Virus record (IMG/VR): IMGVR_UViG_2909309443_000006
Span: 1 to 40,283 of that record
Source: a virus
Lineage: Duplodnaviria; Heunggongvirae; Uroviricota; Caudoviricetes
Length of the DNA stretch: 40,283 nucleotides
Direction: 5' to 3' (one strand)
Part shown: one piece after another, positions 811 through 38,861 of the stretch
How positions within the stretch are numbered: the first letter of the stretch is position 1
Layout: each line of letters starts with the position of its first letter
Made by a program: the position numbers and the translations under genes
The notes under the pieces: generated by a model
The model's database searches: none
The model's input: only the letters and a program-made list of their open reading frames with translations
What the model was told of the DNA's origin: nothing

Positions 811-3780
811 TTAAATACTCCCCGCGTTATACCACGTCCCATTAATGCAATACTGAATTGGCCTTGCCTGAGTTGTATCAATTAATTCATCACGGTTTCC
901 GTTAACTGAACCCGTAACGACATAACCTGACCTGTCAGACCAGCCGGGGCCTTTCCATGTCTGAACAGATGACAGACCGCCAAGGCGAATACCTGTAATA
1001 AACCTTGAGTTACATTCTGCCTGCGTATATGCACCAACATCCCCCGCAGAGGGTTTGCGTGTTGTGGTGTAAAACTCTGACCAGTTAGCTTCAAAGCCAT
1101 AACCATCACGCGCTGAACGATAAAAAATACCGCCGTTCCTGTAATTCACGCGGAACTGTACAGCAGGGCAACTCCCCGCATTCATATTGAAGTGGAGGAT
1201 TAATGTCGATGCACCACTGATATCTGCATCATAAACACCGCTATTCCAGTTCCAGCCAACAGCTTTATCATTTGCGACCCTGCGTCCTGTTTGCCCTAAA
1301 GCAAATGCAGGCTGCTGGTTTTTCGTGTTGTAGTCTCGTCGCCAGCCAGGAGCGTAAGCATCACCATGATTAATATAAGTGAATTGAGCGTTAGTAATTC
1401 CGCCACCGCTGGACGTGCTCGGCGTAGTAACGCGTATGGTCATTGCGCCGCGAGTGCCAATAACTTCCACCACAGCACCTGCAAGACAAATATTTCCGCA
1501 ACCTGTATCTGTAATGACCTTATTATTTGCATAAGCCCATGAGCCTTTGCACATCCAGTAAGGATGGTTAAATGCCCCCTGACTCTCCAGCCACGAAATA
1601 AATTGCGCGGTTGTCCAGACCTGACTATCGCCACCAATATTCAGCCATGAGCTATATGCGCGGCAGGCACCAATATTTTTGGTGAAGGTATCTTTTCCTG
1701 GAATATCTGCGCCGTTCTGGTTTTTCTGTAATGCGCCAGAAGCCTGACTTACCGTTTCCTGTAAACCGAGGTATTCGATAACAGCGGCAACGGTCGATTT
1801 CGCAAGAATATCCCGCCCGACTTTTGTCAGGGTTGCCAGGCTGGCGACATCATTCCCCGTAAAATACGGAAACCTGTCTGCCGCAGTAGCAAGCCCGGCC
1901 AGCGCCGTCAGGGTGGCATCTTTCGGTTGCTTACCCGCAAGCGCGTTAGTCATGGTGGTCGCAAAATTCGGGTCGTTTCCCAGCGCCGCCGCCAGCTCGT
2001 TCAGCGTATTCAGTGCGTCAGGCGACGAGTCTACAAGTGCGGCAATCGCGGCCATCACATAAGCCGTGCTTGCGATCTGAGTATTATTAGTCCCTTTTGG
2101 CGCAGTTGGCGTTGTTGGCGTTCCGGTCAGCGCAGGACTGTTTAAAGGCGCTTTCTTGTTCGTTTCATCCATTACCGCCTTAACCGCTTTTGGTGTCGCA
2201 GCCAGCGTTTCAGACGGGCTGTTAGTGGCGCTACTGAGCTGAACTATCCCTTTTCGTGCCGTCGTTGCATCCTGAGCGGTATATTTTGCGTTAGCAAGGT
2301 CATATGCTGCCTTTACTGCCTTTGGTGTTGCCGCCAGTGACTCGGAAGTGCTGTTGGTCGCACTGCTGAGCTGAACCACACCTTTTTTCGTCGTGCTCGC
2401 ATCTTCCAGAGATACGGCATCAGCAATATCCTCTGCCCGTTTTGCTGCTGTTTCGGCACGCGTTGCCGCGGATTCAGCAGCAACTTTGCTCTGAGATGCA
2501 GCCGTCGCACTGCCTGCCGCCTCTGATGCTTTCGTTGTTGCTGTCGTGGCACTACCTTTCGCTGCTGACGCTTGTCTGGTCGCCTCATCTTTTGAAGCAG
2601 ACGCAGATGATGCCGATGACGCCGCTGAACCAGCGGACGATGCGGCTGCCGCCTTAGAGGAAGCAGCATTGTCTGCTGAAGTCTTTGCATTTGTTTCAGA
2701 GGTTTTTGCTGCAGAAGCAGACCTCGCTGCTGCAGTGGCTTGCTTAGTGGCTTCGCCAGCCTTCGTTGTGGCTGTTGAAGCGGATGATGCGGCGCTTTCT
2801 GCCGATTTTCCGGCGGCGGTGGCACTGGCTGAGGCCTGCCCGGCACTTGTTGACGCGGCACTGGCCGACGATGCAGCCGCTGTTTTTGAACCTGCCGCAG
2901 CTGAGGCACTCTGTGCTGCTGCCGTTTCAGAAGACTTAGCGTTTGTCTCAGACGTCTTTGCCGCCTTCGCGGAATTTCCTGCCGCCGTTGCCGAGGAAGC
3001 TGCACTACTGGCACTTGATGATGCATTCGTTTCTGATGATTTCGCTGCCTCTTTTGAGGCCGCCGCCCCCCGTGCCGAGGTGGCAGCTTCTGACGCCTTC
3101 GTGGTCGCTGTGGATGCAGAAGTGGCTGCCGATTTTTGTGATGCTGCGGCATTCGTTTCTGACGTTTTCGCGGCACTGGCGCTGGTAGCTGCCGCGCTTT
3201 TTGATGACTCTGCAGCAGCAGCACTTTTCGCTGCTTCACTGGCCTTTGTCGATGCCGTTCCTGCGCTGGAAGACGCTGACTGAGCCGACGACGCGGCCTG
3301 TCCGGCTGACGTGCTGGCTGCGCGTGCTGAGCCTGCAGCATCAGTCGCATGGGTTGCCGCCTCACGGGCTGATGTGCTGGCATCACTGGCTGACTTCTTC
3401 GCGGCTGCCGTGTTCTGTGCCACTGCGGACGCGTTACGCGCCACCTCTTCCACCATCAGTTCAAAACGGCGCAGTGCCTCCGGACGGGCATCATCCTCCG
3501 TCATGGCACCGAGAAAATCATTCAGCGTACCGGGTCGGGAATCTTCATACACGGTGATGGTCCCGGCATGTGACGGCGGGAATCCGTCCACCAACAGAAT
3601 AACGCTGTACTGACCGTACTCAACGTCCATGCTGTAACGCCCGGCTTCATCCGGATTTTCTGAGGCCAGCGTGTTCACCACCACCGTGGTGCTGTTACGT
3701 TTTGCTTTCAGCTGGATTGTGCAGTTCTGTACTGGTTTTCCTGTGCCGTCTTTCAGTACACCTGAAATCTTTACTGCCAT
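811..3780 (-). CDS. stf: Side tail fibre protein Stf
   Basis: N-terminus MAVKISGVLKDGTGKPVQNCTIQLKAK matches lambda Stf; long Ala/Ser/Thr-rich repeat region; ATG at 3780 (ORF track begins 2 codons earlier at a GTG). Confidence 0.9.
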   Translation of the reverse strand: MAVKISGVLKDGTGKPVQNCTIQLKAKRNSTTVVVNTLASENPDEAGRYSMDVEYGQYSVILLVDGFPPSHAGTITVYEDSRPGTLNDFLGAMTEDDARPEALRRFELMVEEVARNASAVAQNTAAAKKSASDASTSAREAATHATDAAGSARAASTSAGQAASSAQSASSSAGTASTKASEAAKSAAAAESSKSAAATSASAAKTSETNAAASQKSAATSASTATTKASEAATSARGAAASKEAAKSSETNASSSASSAASSATAAGNSAKAAKTSETNAKSSETAAAQSASAAAGSKTAAASSASAASTSAGQASASATAAGKSAESAASSASTATTKAGEATKQATAAARSASAAKTSETNAKTSADNAASSKAAAASSAGSAASSASSASASKDEATRQASAAKGSATTATTKASEAAGSATAASQSKVAAESAATRAETAAKRAEDIADAVSLEDASTTKKGVVQLSSATNSTSESLAATPKAVKAAYDLANAKYTAQDATTARKGIVQLSSATNSPSETLAATPKAVKAVMDETNKKAPLNSPALTGTPTTPTAPKGTNNTQIASTAYVMAAIAALVDSSPDALNTLNELAAALGNDPNFATTMTNALAGKQPKDATLTALAGLATAADRFPYFTGNDVASLATLTKVGRDILAKSTVAAVIEYLGLQETVSQASGALQKNQNGADIPGKDTFTKNIGACRAYSSWLNIGGDSQVWTTAQFISWLESQGAFNHPYWMCKGSWAYANNKVITDTGCGNICLAGAVVEVIGTRGAMTIRVTTPSTSSGGGITNAQFTYINHGDAYAPGWRRDYNTKNQQPAFALGQTGRRVANDKAVGWNWNSGVYDADISGASTLILHFNMNAGSCPAVQFRVNYRNGGIFYRSARDGYGFEANWSEFYTTTRKPSAGDVGAYTQAECNSRFITGIRLGGLSSVQTWKGPGWSDRSGYVVTGSVNGNRDELIDTTQARPIQYCINGTWYNAGSI

Positions 3781-3844: not shown

Positions 3845-4444
3845 TCAGAATTTATAACCGACACCCACGATGAACCCGTCAGTGCGCCAGTCACCACTGC
3901 CGGAGCCTTCATAAGCAAGGTCAATGGCCACGGATTCGGTCGGGTTAAACTGCACGCCAGCCCCCCACGCCAGAGACGTGTTGCTGTGGCGACCGTCATC
4001 ACTTCCGGTCAGCACATCGTGCGTTTTCCCCTTGTTGTCAGTTACGCGAAGATAATCCCCGGAGAAAGTCGACACACGGCTGTAAGCCACACCCGCCATC
4101 GCATACGCGCTGAACCATTCATTCACGCGCACAGACGGCCCCGCCATCACGCTGAACCAGCGGTTACGCACGGAATCTTCATGCCAGCGGGTATCGCTGT
4201 AATGCGTTTTTTGCTCATCTTTGGCATTGGCATAACTGAATGACGTCACCAGCCCCAGCGTGTCCGTAAATTCATAACGGTATTTCACGTTAATGCCCTT
4301 CAGGTCATCACTGCCTGGCATATCAGTATGGGTCTGAAGATACCCGGCGCTTAGTGTGGACTGATGCTCTGCTGCGCTCGCTGGCGTACCAGCGGCAACC
4401 AGCCAGACTACTGCGGACAGAATAACAGCACATAATTTACGCAT
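3845..4444 (-). CDS. lom: Lom/Ail family outer membrane protein
   Basis: 199 aa with signal peptide and beta-barrel pattern ending GVGYKF; lies between J and stf as in lambda. Confidence 0.85.
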   Translation of the reverse strand: MRKLCAVILSAVVWLVAAGTPASAAEHQSTLSAGYLQTHTDMPGSDDLKGINVKYRYEFTDTLGLVTSFSYANAKDEQKTHYSDTRWHEDSVRNRWFSVMAGPSVRVNEWFSAYAMAGVAYSRVSTFSGDYLRVTDNKGKTHDVLTGSDDGRHSNTSLAWGAGVQFNPTESVAIDLAYEGSGSGDWRTDGFIVGVGYKF

Positions 4445-4468
4445 AATTACCTCTCGCTTTTCTGCAAT

Positions 4469-4492
4469 AAAAAAGGCACCATTTCTGGTGCC
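4469..4492 (-). terminator. Intrinsic terminator between J and lom
   Basis: Hairpin GGCACC-ATTTCT-GGTGCC followed by T-run on the minus strand. Confidence 0.45.
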
Positions 4493-4511
4493 CGTATCTG
4501 GGTTATAAAAT

Positions 4512-7500
4512 TCAGCTAATCGTGATGCCTGTAGTGGCTTTCTTCATCACCACAACCAGCAAATCGCTGATACTTGCTGTGGGATACCAGTTATTTACCA
4601 GCCATGCTGACACCGAAAACTCCAGTGTCATGTGACCGTGACCGGCAGGCATATCAATAACGCCACTGTAAATCAGCGTATTATCCAGCGCGGTACGGTT
4701 ATAAATTTCAGCACCGTTTTTCCGCACTATCAGACGGCATGAGGAGTAAATATCAGTATGCTCTCTCTCATGCTTAGCGCCACTGAATGCCACCGCCGGA
4801 ATAACAATTTGCCGGTCAAACGGCTGATCGTCATAAACCCTGACGGTAATGGTCCCTGATGGCCACCGCTCCGGTGCACGGGAGTCCCGGGGGAAAGCTT
4901 TGCCCACTGTTTTAACGAGATCGCCTTCAATCTGGTTCGCGGACAGTTTTCCCAGAACCCGGCAGTTCTCGTTAATCGTGACGTTGTTGAGCGTCCCGGA
5001 GTTCGCATTCACACTGCCACTGATATCCGCATTTTTAGCGGTCAGCTTTCCGTCCGGTGTCAGGGAAAATGCCGGAGGATTACCGCCGCTGGTAATGGTG
5101 GGAGCCGTCAGATATTTCAGGAACACTTCGTTCATGAATATCTGATCGCCCTGACCAACAAACATCGGCTTTGTGTTGCCATTCGCAGGATTAATCATCG
5201 CAATCCTGTCTGCCGCCAGCAGCACCTGACTCTGCATGCCTGCTGGCGTATTCTCAATACCGGCACCGATACCCGCGATATAAAGGCGTCCGTCCTGCAT
5301 CTGCTGCAGCTTCACAGCCCACATGCTGTTCAGGTTATTATTTGTATCAACCTGAACCTTCTGTATCTGCTGGATCGCTGCACTCTGGTCTTCCAGTTTC
5401 TTATTGACGGTCTGTGTGATTTCATTGCTGACATCCGTAATGGATGTCCTGATTTCAGCCAGGTCAGGCGCAAGCTGACCGTTATCAATCTGCGTCCACA
5501 GCTCCTGAGCCAGATGGGTTTTCCCTATCTCGCCTTTGAAAAAATCCAGATAGCCGGATGCGTCATCACTCGGCTGACCAACAGCCTCCACGAATGCCGA
5601 TTTGCCAACGGTGTTCACACTGCGAACGTAAAAATAATAATTATGGCCCGGCCTGATATTGATACTGGCGGCTATCCAGTACAGCGCCGTGCCAAGATAG
5701 CGTGCTGTGGTTTCAACCTGCCTGATATCCGCAATCCGCTTTTCCGAGAACCAGAACTCAAACTGTACCGTCGGATCATAAACCGCAAGATGCGGCGTGG
5801 CGGTTATCTGAAAATAGCCCGGCGTCAGCTTAATCCGCGACGGTGCTGCCGGTGCGGCAATCCGGAACGATACCGATGCCGGATCGCCCTGCTGTCCCCA
5901 CGCATTTACCGCCCGGACTGTCAGCCTGTAATTTCCCAGCGCCAGTTGCGTGAAGCGGTATGTGGTTTCCGTCGTCCTGGCTGTGCTGACCAGCCGCTCA
6001 CTGCCGTCATCCGCTGTCACGGTCAGACGGAGCAGGAAACTCACGCCCTTCACCACCTTCGGCGTGTCCCAGCGGGCCAGTACCTGATACTCCCCGCTGT
6101 CTGCGGTGACTTCGGCAGTCAGGTGCTGCACTGCTGGCGGCGTGACACCATTCACCGTGCCGCTCTGGTCGCCGTCAAAGTGCGCCCCGTTATCCACGAT
6201 GGCTTCTTTTTCCGGTACATGCTGCACGGCGGTGATGGCATACGTGCCGTCGTCGTTCTCACGGATACTCACGCAGCGGAACAGGCGCTGGCGCAGCGTC
6301 GGCAGCTTCAGCCCCCATACGCTGTATCCGGCAACGCCGTCAGGAACACGGCTCACTTTTACCTTCACTCCGTCGGTGACGGACTGGACCTCCACGCTGA
6401 CCGGATTGCCACTTCCGTCAACCAGGCTTATCAGCGTGGTACCGGAGGATGGCAGCGTGATTTCACGGTCGAGCGTCAGCGTCCGGGTCTGGCTGTTCAC
6501 CGCCAGCACGCGCCCGCCGGTGCTGATCCCCGCATAGTCATCATCGCAGATTTCAATGACATCGCCCGGCACATGGAGAAGCCCTTCCGCACCCACGCTG
6601 AAGTCCACGGTCTGCGTTTCCAGTAGTTCCGTTTTAATCAGCCACAGCCCGGCGCGGTGCGCCTGCCCCCGGCTGGTACAGCCAAAAGCATCCATCTTCG
6701 TGACGTTACGACCGTAACGGGCAATGGCCTGCGTGTCCTCCACAAGCTCTGTCGCCGTCTCCCAGCCGTTATTCGGGTCAATCCAGTTCACCTCAACGGC
6801 ATTATGGCGGTCCTTCAGGGCGCTGAAGCTGTAGCGGAACGGCGCACCATCATCCGGCATCACCACATTACTGCGGTTATAGGTCCACACCTTATCCGAC
6901 GGTCGGTCCTGCACGAACGTCAGCGTCTGCCCGTTCCATACCGGCATACAGCGCATCGCCGAGCAGAAATCACTGAGAACATCCCACGCCTTGCGCTGTG
7001 TGGTCAGCCAGGCATTACAGGTGATGCGCGGCTCCGTGCCACCAAAGCCATCCGGCACCGACTGGTCGCAATTCTGGCCGATGACATACAGCGCCCATTT
7101 GTCCACATCCGCCGCACCGAGACGCTTCCCCATGCCGTAGCGCGGATGGGTCAGCATATCCCACAGACACCAGGCCATGTTGTTGCTGTATGCCGGTTTA
7201 AACGTTCCGTCCCAGATACCGCTGTATTGCCGCGTCTGCGGGTTATAATTCGACGGCACCTGCAGAATACGCCCGCGCAGATGATAATTACGGCTCACCT
7301 GCTGGCTGCCGAACTGCTCCGAGTCCACCTGCACGCCGACCAGTGCCGTGTTCGGGTAGCACTGTTTCACATCGATGATTTCGGTGTATGACGACCAGAG
7401 CGTTTTGTTCTGCAGCTGGTCTGTGGTGCTGTCCGGCGTCATCCTGCGCATCCGGATACTGAACGGGCGCGGCGGCAGGTTATCCACCACCACCGAGGCC

Positions 7501-8051: not shown

Positions 8052-8693
8052 TCAGCGACCAATCACCACAACCTGACCACCATCCCCTTCGTCTGCCGTG
8101 CTGATCTCCTGAGAAACCACGCGTGACCCCACGCGCATTTCACCGTACAGAACAGGCAGAACATTGCCCTGGGCAACCATGTTATCCAGTGAAGAAAAAT
8201 AGGTGTTCTGTTTGCCGTTATCCGTTGTCTGTGTGCGGGGGGTTTTGGGTTTAGGGGCCAGCATCTGTGCAACACCGCCAAGCGTCATACTGGCACCGAG
8301 AGAAAACAGCAGATTACTCGCCATAATTCCTACCCCCGGCATCCATATAGCAACCGCCATAACAGCCGCCCCCAGCACAGCCTGAAACACACCGCCACTT
8401 TTGGCTCCTGCCAGACGCGGCACGATATGGATCACAGCACCATTTGCCAGCGGTTCATTAAGACGGGCTGATAATTCCGTTTCACCTGTATCACGCCCGG
8501 CAATGCGTACCTGATACCAGCCGTCGCTCAGCTTCTGACGAAACGCCGGGATCTGCATGGCCAGCGCCCGGATGGCTTCGGCCCCCGTTTTCACACGCAG
8601 ATCGATGCGGCGGCCAAATCGTTGTAAATCCCCGTAAAGGCAGATACGTGCCATGCCTGGTGACGCCAGAGGGAGTGTGTGCGTCGCTGCCAT
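8052..8693 (-). CDS. I: Tail assembly protein I
   Basis: MAATHTLPLASPGMARICLYGDLQRFGRRIDLRVKTG matches lambda I; C-terminus VVSQEISTADEGDGGQVVVIGR. Confidence 0.9.
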   Translation of the reverse strand: MAATHTLPLASPGMARICLYGDLQRFGRRIDLRVKTGAEAIRALAMQIPAFRQKLSDGWYQVRIAGRDTGETELSARLNEPLANGAVIHIVPRLAGAKSGGVFQAVLGAAVMAVAIWMPGVGIMASNLLFSLGASMTLGGVAQMLAPKPKTPRTQTTDNGKQNTYFSSLDNMVAQGNVLPVLYGEMRVGSRVVSQEISTADEGDGGQVVVIGR

Positions 8694-21501: not shown

Positions 21502-21576
<75 letters not shown>

Positions 21577-21579
21577 ATA

Positions 21580-21655
<76 letters not shown>

Positions 21656-21657
21656 AC

Positions 21658-21734
21658 TGGCCCGCCACCGAGGACTCGAACCTCGCACACTCAACTTAAA
21701 GGGTTGACGCTCTTTCCTGATGAACTGGTGACGG
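21658..21734 (-). tRNA. tRNA-like gene with non-canonical anticodon loop (CCUUUAA, C at position 33); possibly degenerate tRNA-Lys
   Basis: 77 nt cloverleaf foldable (acceptor with one G-U, T-stem CGAGG/CCUCG, T-loop UUCGAGU, CCA encoded) but position 8 is C and U33 is replaced by C. Confidence 0.45.
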
Positions 21735-21735
21735 T

Positions 21736-21811
21736 TGGTGGCCCTTGCTGGATTTGAACCAGCGACCTGGCGATTATGAGTCGCTCGCTCTCACCACTGA
21801 GCTAAAGGGCC
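21736..21811 (-). tRNA. tRNA with CAU anticodon, ileX/ileZ-like (tRNA-Ile2; Met not excluded)
   Basis: 76 nt; GGCCCUUUAGCUCAGUGGUGAGAGC...CUCAUAA...GGUUCAAAUCC...CCA; resembles E. coli ileX as remembered. Confidence 0.8.
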
Positions 21812-28522: not shown

Positions 28523-28678
28523 TTACTCCTCAGGTTCGTAAGCTGTGAAGACAGCGACCTCCGTCTGGCCGGTTCGGATTCGTACCTCGCAGAGGTCTTT
28601 CCTCGTTACCAGTGCCGTCACTATGACGGTTAAACAGATGACGATAAGGGCGATTAACATCGCCTTTTGCTGCTTCAT
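28523..28678 (-). CDS. hok: Hok/Gef family type I toxin (HokD/RelF-like)
   Basis: 51 aa MKQQKAMLIALIVICLTVIVTALVTRKDLCEVRIRTGQTEVAVFTAYEPEE; AAGGAG SD. Confidence 0.85.
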   Translation of the reverse strand: MKQQKAMLIALIVICLTVIVTALVTRKDLCEVRIRTGQTEVAVFTAYEPEE

Positions 28679-28735
28679 AGCCTGCTTCTCCTTGCCTTTC
28701 GGCACGTAAGAGGCTAACCTACATTTGTGAGACAT
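28523..28735 (-). CDS. mok: Mok (overlapping reading frame that couples hok translation)
   Basis: 70 aa ORF from ATG at 28735 in frame with and containing hok, as in hok/sok loci. Confidence 0.5.
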   Translation of the reverse strand: MSHKCRLASYVPKGKEKQAMKQQKAMLIALIVICLTVIVTALVTRKDLCEVRIRTGQTEVAVFTAYEPEE

Positions 28736-28969
28736 AGATTGAGCCTCAGATTAATGTTAAGCGTCTTGCAGGACGCGTAATGTTAACTGGGGCTTTTCTC
28801 TATCTGCCTTTTGGTGTTCATGCCTGAGGCAGATAGCCTCAAGCACCCGCAGCAATTCTACTTAACTCCCCTTTCACTGCAAACCGTTTTTATCCCCAGC
28901 GGCAAATCGAATACACAACAAGTGCTGCCGCCATTGCAATTCCTGTCGTTGTGAATGCCTCCGGCCAGG

Positions 28970-33536: not shown

Positions 33537-33570
33537 ATTACAATGTCAACCATAGCAACATCACTTGGTA

Positions 33571-33584
33571 GTAACATTGGTTAC
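33571..33584. promoter_or_regulatory. Operator half-site pair GTAAC-N4-GTTAC (OR-type), abutting the repressor ATG
   Basis: Inverted repeat gtaacattggttac ending one base before ATG 33585. Confidence 0.5.
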
Positions 33585-34259
33585 ATGAAAAACACTATCA
33601 GCGAACGTATTCGGAATCGTCGAAAAGACGTTGGATTAACCCAACAGCAGGTTGCGAAAGCAATCGGCATATCTCGTGTATCCGTAACAAAATGGGAAAA
33701 TGGCTCTTCAAAACCTGACGGTGAGAATTTGCATCTACTGTCAAAATTGCTTTCCAAATCTCCTGAATGGATTCTTTATGGAAAGGACGGTCACGATAAA
33801 ACCGATGATCTGCGTCTGAATCAGTACCTTTACATTAGTGACAACATCGCCCGGTTGCCCGTTTTAACGTGGGAACAGGCTGGTTATTGGGATATGAGTT
33901 GTCCAGTAACCGAGATTCCTGGTATTAAGAATTGGGTTGATGTCATGACAAAAACCGCTGAAAACTCTTTTTTATTGCATGTTGAGGGAGATGCGATGAC
34001 AAACTCTAACGGCCTCCCAACCATCCCCGACGGATCTACCGTGCTGATCACACCATGCTCAAGTAACATTAGAGAACTGGTGGGAAAAATAATCTTAATC
34101 CAATTGGAAGGAACGCCAAACGTAACACTAAAAAAAGTTGCGATTGACGGACCAAACATCTATCTGTTGTCACTGAATCCGCTTTACAAACCCATCGAAC
34201 TGAATGGTGGTTACACCATTAAAGGTAAAGTTTCACAAATACATCAATACTTAGACTGA
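33585..34259 (+). CDS. CI-like prophage repressor (HTH_XRE + S24/LexA-type peptidase domain)
   Basis: N-terminal HTH (LTQQQVAKAIGISRVSVTKWENG); C-terminal S24 motifs (VEGDAMTNSNG, KKV); start uncertain (ATG 33585 or 33543; ORF track starts at TTG 33486). Confidence 0.8.
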   Translation: MKNTISERIRNRRKDVGLTQQQVAKAIGISRVSVTKWENGSSKPDGENLHLLSKLLSKSPEWILYGKDGHDKTDDLRLNQYLYISDNIARLPVLTWEQAGYWDMSCPVTEIPGIKNWVDVMTKTAENSFLLHVEGDAMTNSNGLPTIPDGSTVLITPCSSNIRELVGKIILIQLEGTPNVTLKKVAIDGPNIYLLSLNPLYKPIELNGGYTIKGKVSQIHQYLD

Positions 34260-35157: not shown

Positions 35158-35368
35158 AATCAATTGCACTTTCAATAAGTGATGCCATCTCATTGCATTT
35201 TGTTGAATTCATCTTACGCAATGAGTCACAAATTTCCGCTGGCTTTGATGACGCAGGCAACTTAGCAGCAAGTAGCATAATTGCCGTTTTTATAGCGGTG
35301 AGATCATCCGCAAGTCCAGCAGGAGAAACATCGTGGTTAAACTGGATATTTACATTTTTACTAGTCAT
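35147..35368 (-). CDS. Hypothetical small protein, antisense to the dicB-type operon
   Basis: 73 aa from ATG at 35368 with strong SD (AGGAGGGTGAA); ORF track extends further upstream without a start. Confidence 0.45.
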   Translation of the reverse strand: MTSKNVNIQFNHDVSPAGLADDLTAIKTAIMLLAAKLPASSKPAEICDSLRKMNSTKCNEMASLIESAIDFND

Positions 35369-35700
35369 TTCACCCTCCTGAGGGTTGGTAATTAAGGGGT
35401 TCTCCACGGGTGAGGTGGAGTGCGTGCGCCGGACACGGGTGAGCATCCGGCACTGACAGTTTACTGAAAGGGCATTTTCCTGAAAAGTCAGGGCATAACG
35501 CGAAAGCGCACGGCGAGGTAGTTGGTTCATAGATAGCCTGTCGTTAAATTTTCGTCGACCGTGCGCTTCCGGTTGTGGCACTCCGCGAAATGGCGCGGCG
35601 GTAAGTATGGCGGGGTTATTCCTCCCCCATTGAGACACCGGGTTGTCAGGTTGACCATGCGCTTAAGTGACAACCCCGCTGCAACGCCCTCTGTTATCAA

Positions 35701-35759
35701 TTTTCTGGTGGCGTTTGGCGGTATCAGTTTTACTCCGTGACTGCTCTGCCGTCCTTTTT
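35701..35759 (+). ncRNA. dicF: DicF-like small RNA (antisense regulator of ftsZ in Qin-type prophages)
   Basis: uuucuggugg cguuuggcgg uaucaguuuu acuccgugac ugcucugccg uccuuuuu, ending in a U-run, about 160 nt upstream of dicB; matches K-12 DicF as remembered. Confidence 0.65.
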
Positions 35760-35764
35760 AAAGT

Positions 35765-35902
35765 GAATTTTGTGATGCGGTGAATGCGGCTAAGCGCACG
35801 CGGAACAGTTAAAACCAAGTTATGGGTGGGGTTCTGTATCCGGCGTTAATTGTTAACTGGTTAACGTCACCTGGAGGCACCAGGCACCGCATCACAAAAT
35901 TC
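35765..35902. repeat. Perfect 18 bp inverted repeat pair (35765-35782 and 35885-35902) bracketing a 102 nt spacer between dicF and dicB
   Basis: GAATTTTGTGATGCGGTG and its exact reverse complement; right arm ends 8 nt before the dicB SD. Confidence 0.8.
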
Positions 35903-35920
35903 ATTGTTGAGGGTGCGATA

Positions 35921-36109
35921 ATGAAAACGTTATTACCAAACGTTAATACGTCTGAAGGTTGTTTTGAAATTGGTGTCAAAATCAGTAACCCAGTATTTAC
36001 TGAAGATGCCATTAATAAGAGAAAACACGAACGGGAGTTATTAAATCAAATATGCATTGTTTCGATGCTGGCCCGTTTACGTCTGATGCAAAAAGGATAC
36101 TGGCAATGA
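35921..36109 (+). CDS. dicB: Cell division inhibitor DicB
   Basis: 62 aa MKTLLPNVNTSEGCFEIGVKISNPVFTEDAINKRKHERELLNQICIVSMLARLRLMQKGYWQ; GAGGGTG SD. Confidence 0.8.
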   Translation: MKTLLPNVNTSEGCFEIGVKISNPVFTEDAINKRKHERELLNQICIVSMLARLRLMQKGYWQ

Positions 36110-36309
36110 ATATCACATTTGCACTTGTTCTGACGGTTTTTCTTGTTTCCGGTGAACCGGTTGACATGGTTACTGGCGTATACGGCTCAATGAAAGAATG
36201 CATGGTTGCCGCAGTGGAGCAGAAAATTCCCGGTAACTGTTATCCGGTCGATAAAGTTATTCACCAGGATAATAACGAAATCCCGGCAGGACTTAAAACA
36301 GCACCGTAA
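36106..36309 (+). CDS. Small protein with N-terminal hydrophobic segment (YdfD-like position)
   Basis: 67 aa; ATG overlaps dicB stop (ATGA); hydrophobic N-terminus ITFALVLTVFLV. Confidence 0.5.
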   Translation: MNITFALVLTVFLVSGEPVDMVTGVYGSMKECMVAAVEQKIPGNCYPVDKVIHQDNNEIPAGLKTAP

Positions 36310-36389
36310 TTAATATCCGGTTTCATTTTTATATGCCAGCAATGGCAGGGATTTGTTCATCCTTAAATCTGTAATGAGGTTAAAACAAA

Positions 36390-38861
36390 ATGAGTAAAGT
36401 CTTTATTTGCGCCGCCATTCCGGACGAACAGGCAATAAAGGAAGAAGGTGCAGTCGCTGTAGCCACTGCCATTGAAGCTGGTGATGAACGTCGCGCCCGC
36501 GCAAAATTTCACTGGCAATTCCTGGAACATTATCCGGCTGCTCAGGACTGCGCTTATAAATTTCTTGTTTGCGAGGATAAACCCGGTATACCCCGCCCTG
36601 CTATCGACTCCTGGGATACCGAATATATGCAGGAAAACCGCTGGGATGAGGAGTCTGCTTCCTTTGTCCCGGTTGAGACTGAATCAGATCCGATGAACGT
36701 CACTTTTGACAAGCTGGCCCCTGAAGTACAGAACGCTGTCATGGTTAAGTTCGACACATGTGAAAATATCACCGTTGATATGGTGATTAGCGCGCAGGAA
36801 TTGTTGCAGGAAGACATGGCAACATTCGACGGACATATCGTTGAAGCGTTGATGAAAATGCCAGAAGTTAACGCCATGTATCCGGAGCTTAAGCTGCATG
36901 CCATCGGGTGGGTTAAGCATAAATGTAAGCCTGGTGCCAAATGGCCCGAAATTCAGGCAGAGATGCGCATCTGGAAAAAACGTCGCGAAGGTGAACGCAA
37001 GGAAACCGGAAAATACACGTCTGTTGTTGATCTCGCCCGCGCCAGAGCCAATCAACAGAACACTGAAAATTCAACAGGAAAAATCAACCCGGCCATTGCT
37101 GCCACTCATCGCGAATACAAGCAGACATGGAAAACACTGGATGATGAACTGGCCTACGCTCTGTGGCCTGGTGACATTGATGCCGGAAACATTGACGGCA
37201 GCATCCATCGCTGGGCAAAAAATGAAGTTATCAACAACGACCGCGAAGACTGGAAGCGTATCTCGGCATCAATGCGCAAACAGCCTGATACCCTTCGCTA
37301 CGACCGCCAGACTATTTTTGGCCTTGTTCGTGAACGTCCGATCGACATTCACAAAGACCCTGTGGCACTGAACAAATACATTACTGAATACCTGACTACA
37401 AAGGGCGTGTTTGAAGATGAAGGAACAAATCAGAGCGCAACTGATACTCTCTCGTCGCCAGTACCAGAAACTGATGCAGTGGAAACGGCAATTCCGGACA
37501 ACGAAAAAACCGAATGCAAAGTGGAAGTCGAACCATCTGTAGAGCGTGAGGGGCCGTTCTACTTCCTCTTCACCGACAAGGATGGCGAAAAATACGGTCG
37601 CGCAAACAAACTTTCTGGTCTGGATAAGGCGCTGGCTGCCGGGGCTACTGAAATCACGAAAGAAGAATATTTCGCCCGCAAAAACAGTACATGCTCAGGT
37701 TCACAACAAAATACTGGTGCATCTGACACGACCGCACAGCCAGAACCGGTAAAAGTTACCGCTGACGAAGTAAACAAAATTATGCAGGCAGCCAATATCA
37801 GCCAGCCTGACGCCGATAAGTTGCTTGCTGCATCACGTGGTGAATTTATTGAAGGGATTAGCGACCCGAATGATCCGAAATGGGTGAAGGGGATTGAAAC
37901 CCGCGATTCTGTGAACCAGAACCAGCAAGAAACGGAACAGAACGACCAGAAAGCGGAACAAAACAGCCCAAATACGCAACAAAACGAGCCAGAAACGAAA
38001 CAACCTGAACCAGTAGCGCAACAGGAACCGGAAAAAGCCTGCACCGCCTGTGGTCAGAGCGGTGGCGGCAACTGCCCTGATTGTGGCGCGGTGATGGGCG
38101 ACGCAACATACCAGGAAACATTCGATGAAGAGAATCAGGTTGAAGTTCAGGAAAACGATCCGGAGGAAATGGAAGGCGCTGAACATCCACACAAGGAGAA
38201 TGCTGGCAGCGCTCAGGACCACGCCAGCGATAATGCAACTGGCGAGGCGGCAGATCACTCAATTAAGGTGAACGGTCATCACGAAATCACATCCACCAGC
38301 AGGACGTGTGGCCATCTAATGATCGACCTCGAAACCATGGGAAAAAATCCTGATGCCCCGATTATCTCAATAGGTGCAATATTTTTCGATCCGCAAACCG
38401 GAGATATGGGACCGGAATTTAGTAAGACTATCGATCTGGAAACTGCTGGCGGAGTCATTGATCGGGACACCATTAAATGGTGGCTGAAGCAATCACGCGA
38501 AGCGCAATCTGCCATTATGACTGATGAAATCCCGTTAGATGATGCTCTGTTACAATTGCGAGAATTTATCGACGAAAACTCCGGTGAGTTTTTTGTTCAG
38601 GTCTGGGGAAATGGAGCCAACTTCGACAACACGATTTTGCGCCGTTCATACGAGCGGCAGGGGATCCCCTGCCCGTGGCGTTACTACAACGATCGCGATG
38701 TACGCACAATCGTTGAGCTGGGGAAAGCCATAGGCTTCGATGCCAGAACGGCTATTCCATTCGAAGGTGAGCGCCATAATGCACTTGATGACGCCCGTTA
38801 CCAGGCAAAATACGTTTCAGCTATCTGGCAAAAACTGATCCCGAGTCAGGCTGATTTTTAA
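36390..38861 (+). CDS. Large prophage exonuclease: C-terminal DnaQ-like DEDDh 3'-5' exonuclease domain, central Zn-ribbon and acidic/Gln-rich linker
   Basis: 823 aa; exo motifs LMIDLETMG, GNGANFDNTIL, HNALDDARYQAKY in the last 190 residues; CTACGQSGGGNCPDCG ribbon; sits in the exo position upstream of xis-int. Confidence 0.7.
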   Translation: MSKVFICAAIPDEQAIKEEGAVAVATAIEAGDERRARAKFHWQFLEHYPAAQDCAYKFLVCEDKPGIPRPAIDSWDTEYMQENRWDEESASFVPVETESDPMNVTFDKLAPEVQNAVMVKFDTCENITVDMVISAQELLQEDMATFDGHIVEALMKMPEVNAMYPELKLHAIGWVKHKCKPGAKWPEIQAEMRIWKKRREGERKETGKYTSVVDLARARANQQNTENSTGKINPAIAATHREYKQTWKTLDDELAYALWPGDIDAGNIDGSIHRWAKNEVINNDREDWKRISASMRKQPDTLRYDRQTIFGLVRERPIDIHKDPVALNKYITEYLTTKGVFEDEGTNQSATDTLSSPVPETDAVETAIPDNEKTECKVEVEPSVEREGPFYFLFTDKDGEKYGRANKLSGLDKALAAGATEITKEEYFARKNSTCSGSQQNTGASDTTAQPEPVKVTADEVNKIMQAANISQPDADKLLAASRGEFIEGISDPNDPKWVKGIETRDSVNQNQQETEQNDQKAEQNSPNTQQNEPETKQPEPVAQQEPEKACTACGQSGGGNCPDCGAVMGDATYQETFDEENQVEVQENDPEEMEGAEHPHKENAGSAQDHASDNATGEAADHSIKVNGHHEITSTSRTCGHLMIDLETMGKNPDAPIISIGAIFFDPQTGDMGPEFSKTIDLETAGGVIDRDTIKWWLKQSREAQSAIMTDEIPLDDALLQLREFIDENSGEFFVQVWGNGANFDNTILRRSYERQGIPCPWRYYNDRDVRTIVELGKAIGFDARTAIPFEGERHNALDDARYQAKYVSAIWQKLIPSQADF

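Follow-up and report, generated by a model that had tools for sequence, protein, structure and literature searches.

The interval between dicF and dicB in this prophage probably belongs, with both of its flanking genes, to a single early-operon arrangement of a Qin-type lambdoid prophage, in which the small RNA DicF is followed by an RNase III-cut RNA element and then by the leader of dicB. Both DicF and DicB block division of the host cell and are textbook examples of prophage-encoded inhibitors. [quoted passage not shown] 1990; Balasubramanian et al. 2016; Ragunathan et al. 2023). K-12 Qin and the window share the gene order ydfC, dicF, spacer, dicB, ydfD, exonuclease, and a long helix lies between dicF and dicB in both. 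Their identity is 91.4% over positions 35400-36400 of the window, and the mean column identity of the dicF-dicB interval alone is 97%. A comparison with K-12 Qin had been suggested in an earlier reading of the sequence alone (hereafter the sequence-only reading).

The DicF gene (35703-35759, + strand) consists of a single-stranded 5' part, a terminator-like 3' hairpin and a U-run, and is flanked by ydfC and dicB in the annotation of the identical record. The Rfam DicF covariance model (RF00039), the check proposed in the sequence-only reading, aligns end to end (model positions 1-52 of 52) with 35703-35754 (+), scoring 70.8 bits against a curated threshold of 48, and the TTTTT run at 35755-35759 follows directly, confirming the DicF-like sequence ending in a U-run that had been placed at 35701-35759. 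Two substitutions separate this DicF from that of K-12. A terminator scan misses the DicF terminator, the loop of which is above the limit of the tool, and a degenerate DicF pattern applied to genome contigs returned mostly chance matches in unrelated phyla, together with a few Escherichia/Shigella loci. In K-12, the 5' end of DicF is made by RNase E, and the RNA represses ftsZ translation (PMC10448788; PMC5069750). The main, 53-nt form is produced by intrinsic termination and RNase E (PMC10448788), its 3' end being that of the intrinsic terminator (PMC5069750; PMC9438474).

Downstream of DicF, two 19-nt arms at 35764-35782 (TGAATTTTGTGATGCGGTG) and 35885-35903 (CACCGCATCACAAAATTCA) on the + strand are 100% complementary and 102 nt apart. 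The repeat had previously been described as an exact inverted repeat of 18 bp; its perfection and the 102-nt spacing stand, and its length is corrected to 19 bp. In RNA, the helix reaches 20-21 bp by way of the additional pairs G35763-U35904 and A35762-U35905. This is the sole perfect inverted repeat of at least 15 nt within 300 nt in the whole 40,283-nt window, and our own arithmetic (40,283 positions x 200 spacings x 4^-19) gives a chance expectation of ~3e-5 for a 19-bp repeat. The RNA-folding check that had been recommended supports the + strand, with 35762-35905 folding at -65.1 kcal/mol on the + strand (z -6.9) and at -55.7 on the - strand, and with a pair probability of ~1.0 for the closing helix in the read-through RNA (RNAfold, 35703-35950). 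The core enclosed by the helix (35783-35884, +) contains four hairpins, at 35786-35801, 35802-35841 (variable), 35842-35868 and 35870-35884 (CCUGG-AGGCA-CCAGG), as indicated by the fold, by covariation, and by the sub-threshold STnc100 match and reciprocal model described below.

Conservation of the helix was assessed at two depths. In 113 dicF-dicB loci drawn from viral and genome collections, most of the polymorphisms in the stem are C-to-U changes opposite G, and one stem position is found as C-G, U-G or U-A; the departures from pairing are an A-C mismatch (9 loci), a C-A mismatch (1 locus) and a single locus (L107) with two mismatches. The C-to-U changes opposite G leave the arms paired in + strand RNA alone. 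The K-12 helix itself differs from the perfect 19-bp helix of the window by two G-U pairs that replace two G-C pairs. In a MAFFT alignment of 30 diverse copies, including kilR-type copies, copies before other ORFs, and copies from phage P7 and a Klebsiella phage, 92.6% of cells are paired, as against 33-41% with slid partners, and 15 pairs change on both sides, where shuffling gives 4.6 +/- 1.7 (none of 500 shuffles reaches 15); the compensatory changes fall in the closing helix and the two 3' hairpins. The 'unpaired' cells of kilR-type copies in the outer half of the closing helix stem from a one-nt bulge that was left ungapped by MAFFT. When sequences are folded one by one, the closing helix of dicB-type copies is 18-20 bp and mostly uninterrupted, and that of kilR-type and most other lambdoid copies is 18-19 bp with one or two small interruptions; every lambdoid early-operon copy but L186 (3 bp) has a closing helix of 18-20 bp, interrupted no more than twice and by one nt each time. 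Elsewhere, the Klebsiella phage copy has a 16-bp helix that contains two bulges, and the helix of the phage P7 copy is 9 bp. The identities of the flanking features, the helix, its conservation and covariation, and the homology of the fold to STnc100/PasD are shown by the analysis itself.

Double-cleavage substrates of E. coli RNase III are characterized by an intramolecular helix in the transcribed strand that makes about two turns (~20 bp), and the read-through transcript of this locus contains such a helix, with 19 Watson-Crick pairs and 2 further ones, conserved with compensatory and G-U changes. RNase III processing on the 3' side of DicF is documented for K-12 Qin, in PMC5069750 and PMC9438474 and in Gordon et al. 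2017. According to PMC5069750 and PMC9438474, which cite Faubladier et al. 1990, the full-length dicBF mRNA is cut by RNase III to give a 72-nt DicF. Counting from the annotated K-12 5' end (window position 35702) along an ungapped alignment, with an uncertainty of ~5 nt, would place the 3' end of this 72-nt form at ~35773, or at up to 35778 if the 53-nt form includes the U-run, in either case inside the left arm. Table S1 of Gordon et al. 2017 lists MG1655 position 1649470 as 'intergenic dicF-dicB' and flags it as a known site, with 0 and 0 reads in two wild-type replicates and 26 in the rnc deletion. This position, which is a coverage-ratio peak of 26 reads without nucleotide resolution, maps to ~35790 of the window, inside the repeat-bounded element, and the zero wild-type coverage fits excision and decay of the element core. 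Since RNase III cuts leave a 2-nt 3' overhang (PMC6212723), a partner cut in the right arm is predicted at ~35891-35896, assuming a 2-nt stagger, and would leave dicB with a leader of 25-30 nt. The proposal in the sequence-only reading that the stem is an RNase III substrate thus agrees with the 72-nt DicF and with the rnc-dependent site of K-12. The RNase III dependence and the approximate cut position would hold for the window by analogy, having been carried over from the literature on the K-12 orthologue. The interpretation is supported, largely because it rediscovers a processing event that goes back to a 1990 description and reappeared in RNA-seq data of 2017; the dicF-dicB locus and, as judged from the K-12 orthologue, RNase III processing between the two genes are already known biology.

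The sequence-only reading had also held that DicF is released from the dicB operon transcript by RNases III and E. Processing 3' of DicF is upheld, with two qualifications. The 53-nt DicF is a product of termination and RNase E, and the best-mapped K-12 RNase III cut lies upstream, where it gives a 190-nt DicF species its 5' end (PMC10448788), which makes the stem a second, downstream site. Therefore, the stem is a downstream RNase III site and not the release route of most DicF. A candidate for the upstream site is an irregular long hairpin at 35494-35577 (+), built on an inverted repeat at 35501-35513 and 35559-35571 (13 nt, 92% complementary), with a fold of -46.3 kcal/mol for 35485-35600 (z -2.7). 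A 190-nt species ending at the DicF terminator would begin at ~35566-35570, on the 3' side of this hairpin, making the hairpin a candidate RNase III site for the 5' end of the 190-nt precursor.

On the other side of the element, the identification of DicB in the sequence-only reading is borne out by PF05358 (130.5 bits, cut-off 27), which covers residues 1-62 of the 62-aa cell division inhibitor encoded at 35921-36109 (+), in accordance with the RefSeq annotation of the identical record. Its ATG (35921-35923) is preceded by the Shine-Dalgarno sequence GAGGG (35909-35913, +), which five nt separate from the right arm. Downstream, dicB is followed by a ydfD-like DUF1482 gene (36106-36309, +; PF07358, 81.6 bits), the start of which overlaps the dicB stop by four bases, and then by an exonuclease with an Rv2179c-like domain. 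A 95-aa ORF at 35822-36109 (+), in frame with dicB and beginning at an ATG in the variable hairpin, was considered as a longer form of DicB and is probably not real; it exists solely owing to a one-nt deletion in the window allele relative to K-12, where, by our reading, a stop follows the same ATG after 11 codons.

Folding predicts a further connection between the DicF terminator and dicB. In the modelled read-through RNA (RNAfold, 35703-35950), the helix is followed by a small internal loop and then by pairing of CCUUU at the 3' edge of the DicF terminator (35753-35757, +) with the GAGGG of the dicB Shine-Dalgarno sequence. The predicted unpaired probability of the Shine-Dalgarno sequence in the window is 0.01 in the read-through RNA and 0.75 after the predicted cut, and the corresponding predictions in the dicB-type loci tested are 0.01-0.06 uncleaved against ~0.75 cut; after the predicted cut, the dicB AUG would be part of a weak local hairpin. 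Of 108 natural dicF-dicB loci, 107 are predicted to be masked in this way, a figure to be read with the nature of the masking helix, which has 4-5 weak pairs of a pyrimidine against a purine tract and is of low information. No covariation was seen in the masking helix. The predicted masking offers a simple explanation of how read-through past the DicF terminator yields no DicB.

Taken together, the following sequence of events is proposed. DicF transcripts would end at their own intrinsic terminator, and read-through would carry the polymerase into a multi-hairpin element of ~140 nt (35762-35905), the closing helix of which (19-21 bp, formed by the inverted repeat) would be cut by RNase III on both strands. 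The left-arm cut would produce the 72-nt DicF isoform, the staggered right-arm cut would produce a dicB-ydfD mRNA with the short 25-30-nt leader, and the excised core would then be degraded. In uncleaved RNA, the helix would hold the pyrimidine tail of the DicF terminator on the dicB Shine-Dalgarno sequence, and cleavage would permit translation. If true, one cleavage event both sets the DicF isoform and permits toxin synthesis. As a prediction from folding, the proposal that RNase III cleavage unmasks the Shine-Dalgarno sequence and so permits dicB translation is a tentative one, and the opposite outcome, faster decay of dicB mRNA after cleavage, is about as likely.

According to that opposite account, cleavage of the stem would silence dicB by leaving a 5'-monophosphate on an unstructured leader, open to rapid RNase E decay, and would thereby keep the toxin low. 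DicB is toxic, 10 of the 18 putative RNase III sites highlighted by Gordon et al. 2017 destabilised the downstream mRNA, and the 1,608-nt ydfABC-dicFB-ydfD transcript accumulates solely upon inactivation of RNase E (PMC10448788), all of which speak for silencing. Against it, in the predicted folds the transcript is masked from translation even before cleavage, in which case further silencing by cleavage would be redundant. Silencing by cleavage is accordingly rated as possible but somewhat doubtful.

The spacer also appears to have relatives outside the dicF-dicB context. At the gathering threshold of 47 bits, no match to the Rfam STnc100 model (RF02076) is present anywhere in the window. A sensitive scan of 751 nt detects one at 35752-35937 with 38.3 bits and E = 1e-6, which extends over the full length of the model (positions 1-206 of 206) and places the consensus closing helix on the inverted repeat; at 38.3 bits against 47, the window copy lies outside Rfam's own definition of STnc100 membership, and canonical copies score 57-165 bits on the same model. 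In the reverse direction, a covariance model (R1) built solely from dicB/kilR-type (leader-type) copies finds canonical, Rfam-positive STnc100 copies, up to those with 165 bits on Rfam's own model, with 26.6-58 bits (E 1e-14 to 3e-5) over all or most of the length of R1. R1 finds one copy in the window; a further match on the - strand (32 bits) was rejected as a palindromic echo of the + strand element. A 20-base motif common to the window and the STnc100 consensus (TCACCNGGAGGCACCNGGCACC) matched more than 120 prophage contigs, and among the motif-bearing contigs the helix beside the invariant GGUG/CACC covaries, with the arm pairs GCAUGGUG/CACCAUGC, UGAUGCGGUG/CACCGCAUCA and ACUACGGUG/CACCGUAGU, such that family branches differ in arm sequence and keep the pairing.

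In architecture, STnc100/PasD and the window element share a multi-hairpin fold and a closing helix starting GGUG...CACC, and STnc100 and the window element further share GGUGAAU after the left arm and a hairpin CCNGG-AGGCA-CCNGG before the right arm. The reciprocal detection, together with the shared motif and architecture, indicates that the spacer is a diverged relative of STnc100, and its homology to STnc100/PasD is very probable. PasD is a northern-validated sRNA from Hfq RIL-seq that was reported to be related to STnc100 (bioRxiv 10.64898/2026.05.13.724894). The window element differs from canonical STnc100 copies in its closing helix, which is 19-21 bp and uninterrupted as against 6-10 bp, and in its setting, in that it lies in an early operon, directly upstream of a start codon and without a terminator of its own, whereas the canonical copies examined adjoin tRNA genes, some of them as tandem arrays. 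The P1-type c4 antisense RNA was considered for the matches in P7/D6 and rejected, the P7 copy being located upstream of terB, between tRNA genes and ban; the Rfam C4 model gives no match covering the region in the window.

The element is found also without DicF or without dicB, and always just upstream of a start codon, which may be that of dicB, of kilR, of a 283-aa ORF, of a 94-aa ORF or, in P7, of terB, with a fixed distance from the motif to the ATG of 32 nt for dicB and 37 nt for kilR. Two further accounts of the element bear on these observations. One is that it is mainly a gene for a trans-acting Hfq-type sRNA, as are STnc100 and PasD, that the inverted repeat is no more than the stem closing this RNA, and that its cleavage by RNase III is incidental turnover. 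The STnc100 homology (38.3 bits over the full model, with reciprocal detection) and the status of PasD as a northern-validated RNA recovered by Hfq RIL-seq are in its favour. However, a sigma-70-like promoter was not found in 35300-36400, no terminator follows the right arm, and the dicB start occupies the position of the 3' hairpin of the Rfam model; the spacing of element and ATG is fixed, and in K-12 the core has zero wild-type coverage and is visible only without RNase III (Gordon et al. 2017). A primary role as a trans-acting sRNA is therefore considered unlikely.

The other account is that the inverted repeat acts as DNA, either as a protein-binding palindrome or by forming the terminal repeats of a small module that moves or recombines. 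The portability of the element would suit such a module, in that it occurs before genes as different as dicB, kilR, the 283-aa and 94-aa ORFs and P7 terB, with or without DicF. But most stem polymorphisms are G-U-compatible on the + strand only and would be mismatches in DNA or in - strand RNA, compensatory changes occur in two internal hairpins as well as in the closing helix, and from one family branch to another the arms change in sequence and still pair. Miniature inverted-repeat mobile elements are recognized by sequence-conserved terminal repeats and target-site duplications, and the window element has neither, its flanks being AAAG and TTGTTG without a target-site duplication. A function of the repeat at the DNA level is thus very improbable, and the preferred reading remains that of an RNA element cut by RNase III ahead of dicB. 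The broader proposal, in which the spacer is a diverged STnc100/PasD RNA, recruited into lambdoid early operons, that serves as an RNase III-cleavable cassette immediately before division-inhibitor toxin genes (dicB in Qin-type and kilR in Rac-type prophages), with DicB made solely from cut transcripts, is speculative when all of its parts are taken jointly, the translational switch being the part that makes it less probable.

The clearest parallel is in the Rac prophage of K-12 (locus L281, NC_000913.3 1417500-2420000 region; element at 751-903 and KilS at 906-1003 of the locus, - strand). There, a terminator hairpin like that of DicF, with its U-run, forms the end of the annotated sRNA KilS, the U-run lies five nt before a long-stem element (131 bits with model R1), and the element ends ~20 nt before kilR, which encodes an FtsZ-directed division inhibitor. 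In Rac, a one-nt bulge interrupts the 19-bp closing helix, kilR takes the place of dicB downstream, and, unlike in dicB-type loci, no masking of the Shine-Dalgarno sequence is predicted in Rac or other kilR-type copies. In the scanned Rac-SA53 locus, the upstream sRNA is not reported at the Rfam DicF threshold. In the kilR-sieB interval, Gordon et al. 2017 report an rnc-dependent site (1418510) without flagging it as known; because they required a spacing of at least 400 bp between sites, it is not assignable to the Rac stem. The same order of sRNA terminator, long-stem element and division inhibitor recurs in Rac. With DicF, element and dicB in Qin matched by KilS, element and kilR in Rac, the two layouts suggest a cassette that can be reused for post-transcriptional control of prophage toxins. 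In the lambda N leader, T7 R1.1 and cIII, a long helix in a polycistronic early transcript is cut by RNase III on both strands, and the cuts separate functional RNAs and change downstream translation or stability. The likeness of these systems to the window is functional, with no sequence relationship.

The kinship of the spacer with STnc100/PasD, the parallel layout of Qin and Rac, and the masking of the Shine-Dalgarno sequence were not found described in the literature searched, and constitute modest, partly inferential additions to what was known of the locus. The identification of the spacer as a diverged copy of the widespread prophage RNA fold STnc100/PasD may be new. For STnc100/PasD-type RNAs, which are without established function, it would mean that one branch gains a role as an RNase III-cut leader before toxic genes, in a system whose processing is already mapped.

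Several minor observations concern the element and its relatives. The central hairpin (35802-35841, +) is a hypervariable cassette, the distance between the arms being 102, 110, 119 or 123 nt as a result of unrelated inserts in otherwise near-identical dicF-dicB loci. The window's variable hairpin lacks 8 nt, with arms 102 nt apart as against the usual 110, and among the 113 loci sampled this 102-nt allele occurs twice, each time in this strain. Tandem arrays of STnc100 were encountered in IMG/VR prophage contigs, one (L182) having five copies in ~1.1 kb (2265-3380) and another (L231) having five clustered at 4349-5513 and one further copy at 8357-8555; tRNA genes adjoin the arrays in L182, L175, L185 and L204. 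The window has a cluster of four tRNA genes at 21502-21811 (-), namely Gly-tcc, two Lys-ttt and Met-cat, of which the Rfam tRNA model detects three, and, unlike in other prophage contigs examined, no STnc100 copy adjoins it. E. coli-type dicF-dicB or element sequences with 87-93% identity also occur in records of unrelated hosts, including Aeromonas phage AP1 (H39; MT713136.1 249906-250147), Actinobacillus phage vB_Apl-pPE4 (H55) and a Veillonella parvula MAG (L038), and likely reflect contamination, chimeric assembly or mis-binning.

Elsewhere in the window, the immunity region upstream of the dicBF-type operon differs from that of K-12 Qin in encoding an HTH repressor of the LexA/S24-peptidase type (33543-34259, +) where K-12 has DicA. 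DicA of K-12 is reported to lack RecA-mediated cleavage, and the presence of a LexA/S24-type repressor in its place suggests that this prophage may be SOS-inducible. At 28673-28848 (-), Rfam RF01794 identifies a sok antitoxin RNA with 121.6 bits, implying a hok/sok-type toxin-antitoxin locus in the same prophage, and sok is also found near the DicF locus in two other scanned contigs (L099 and L041).
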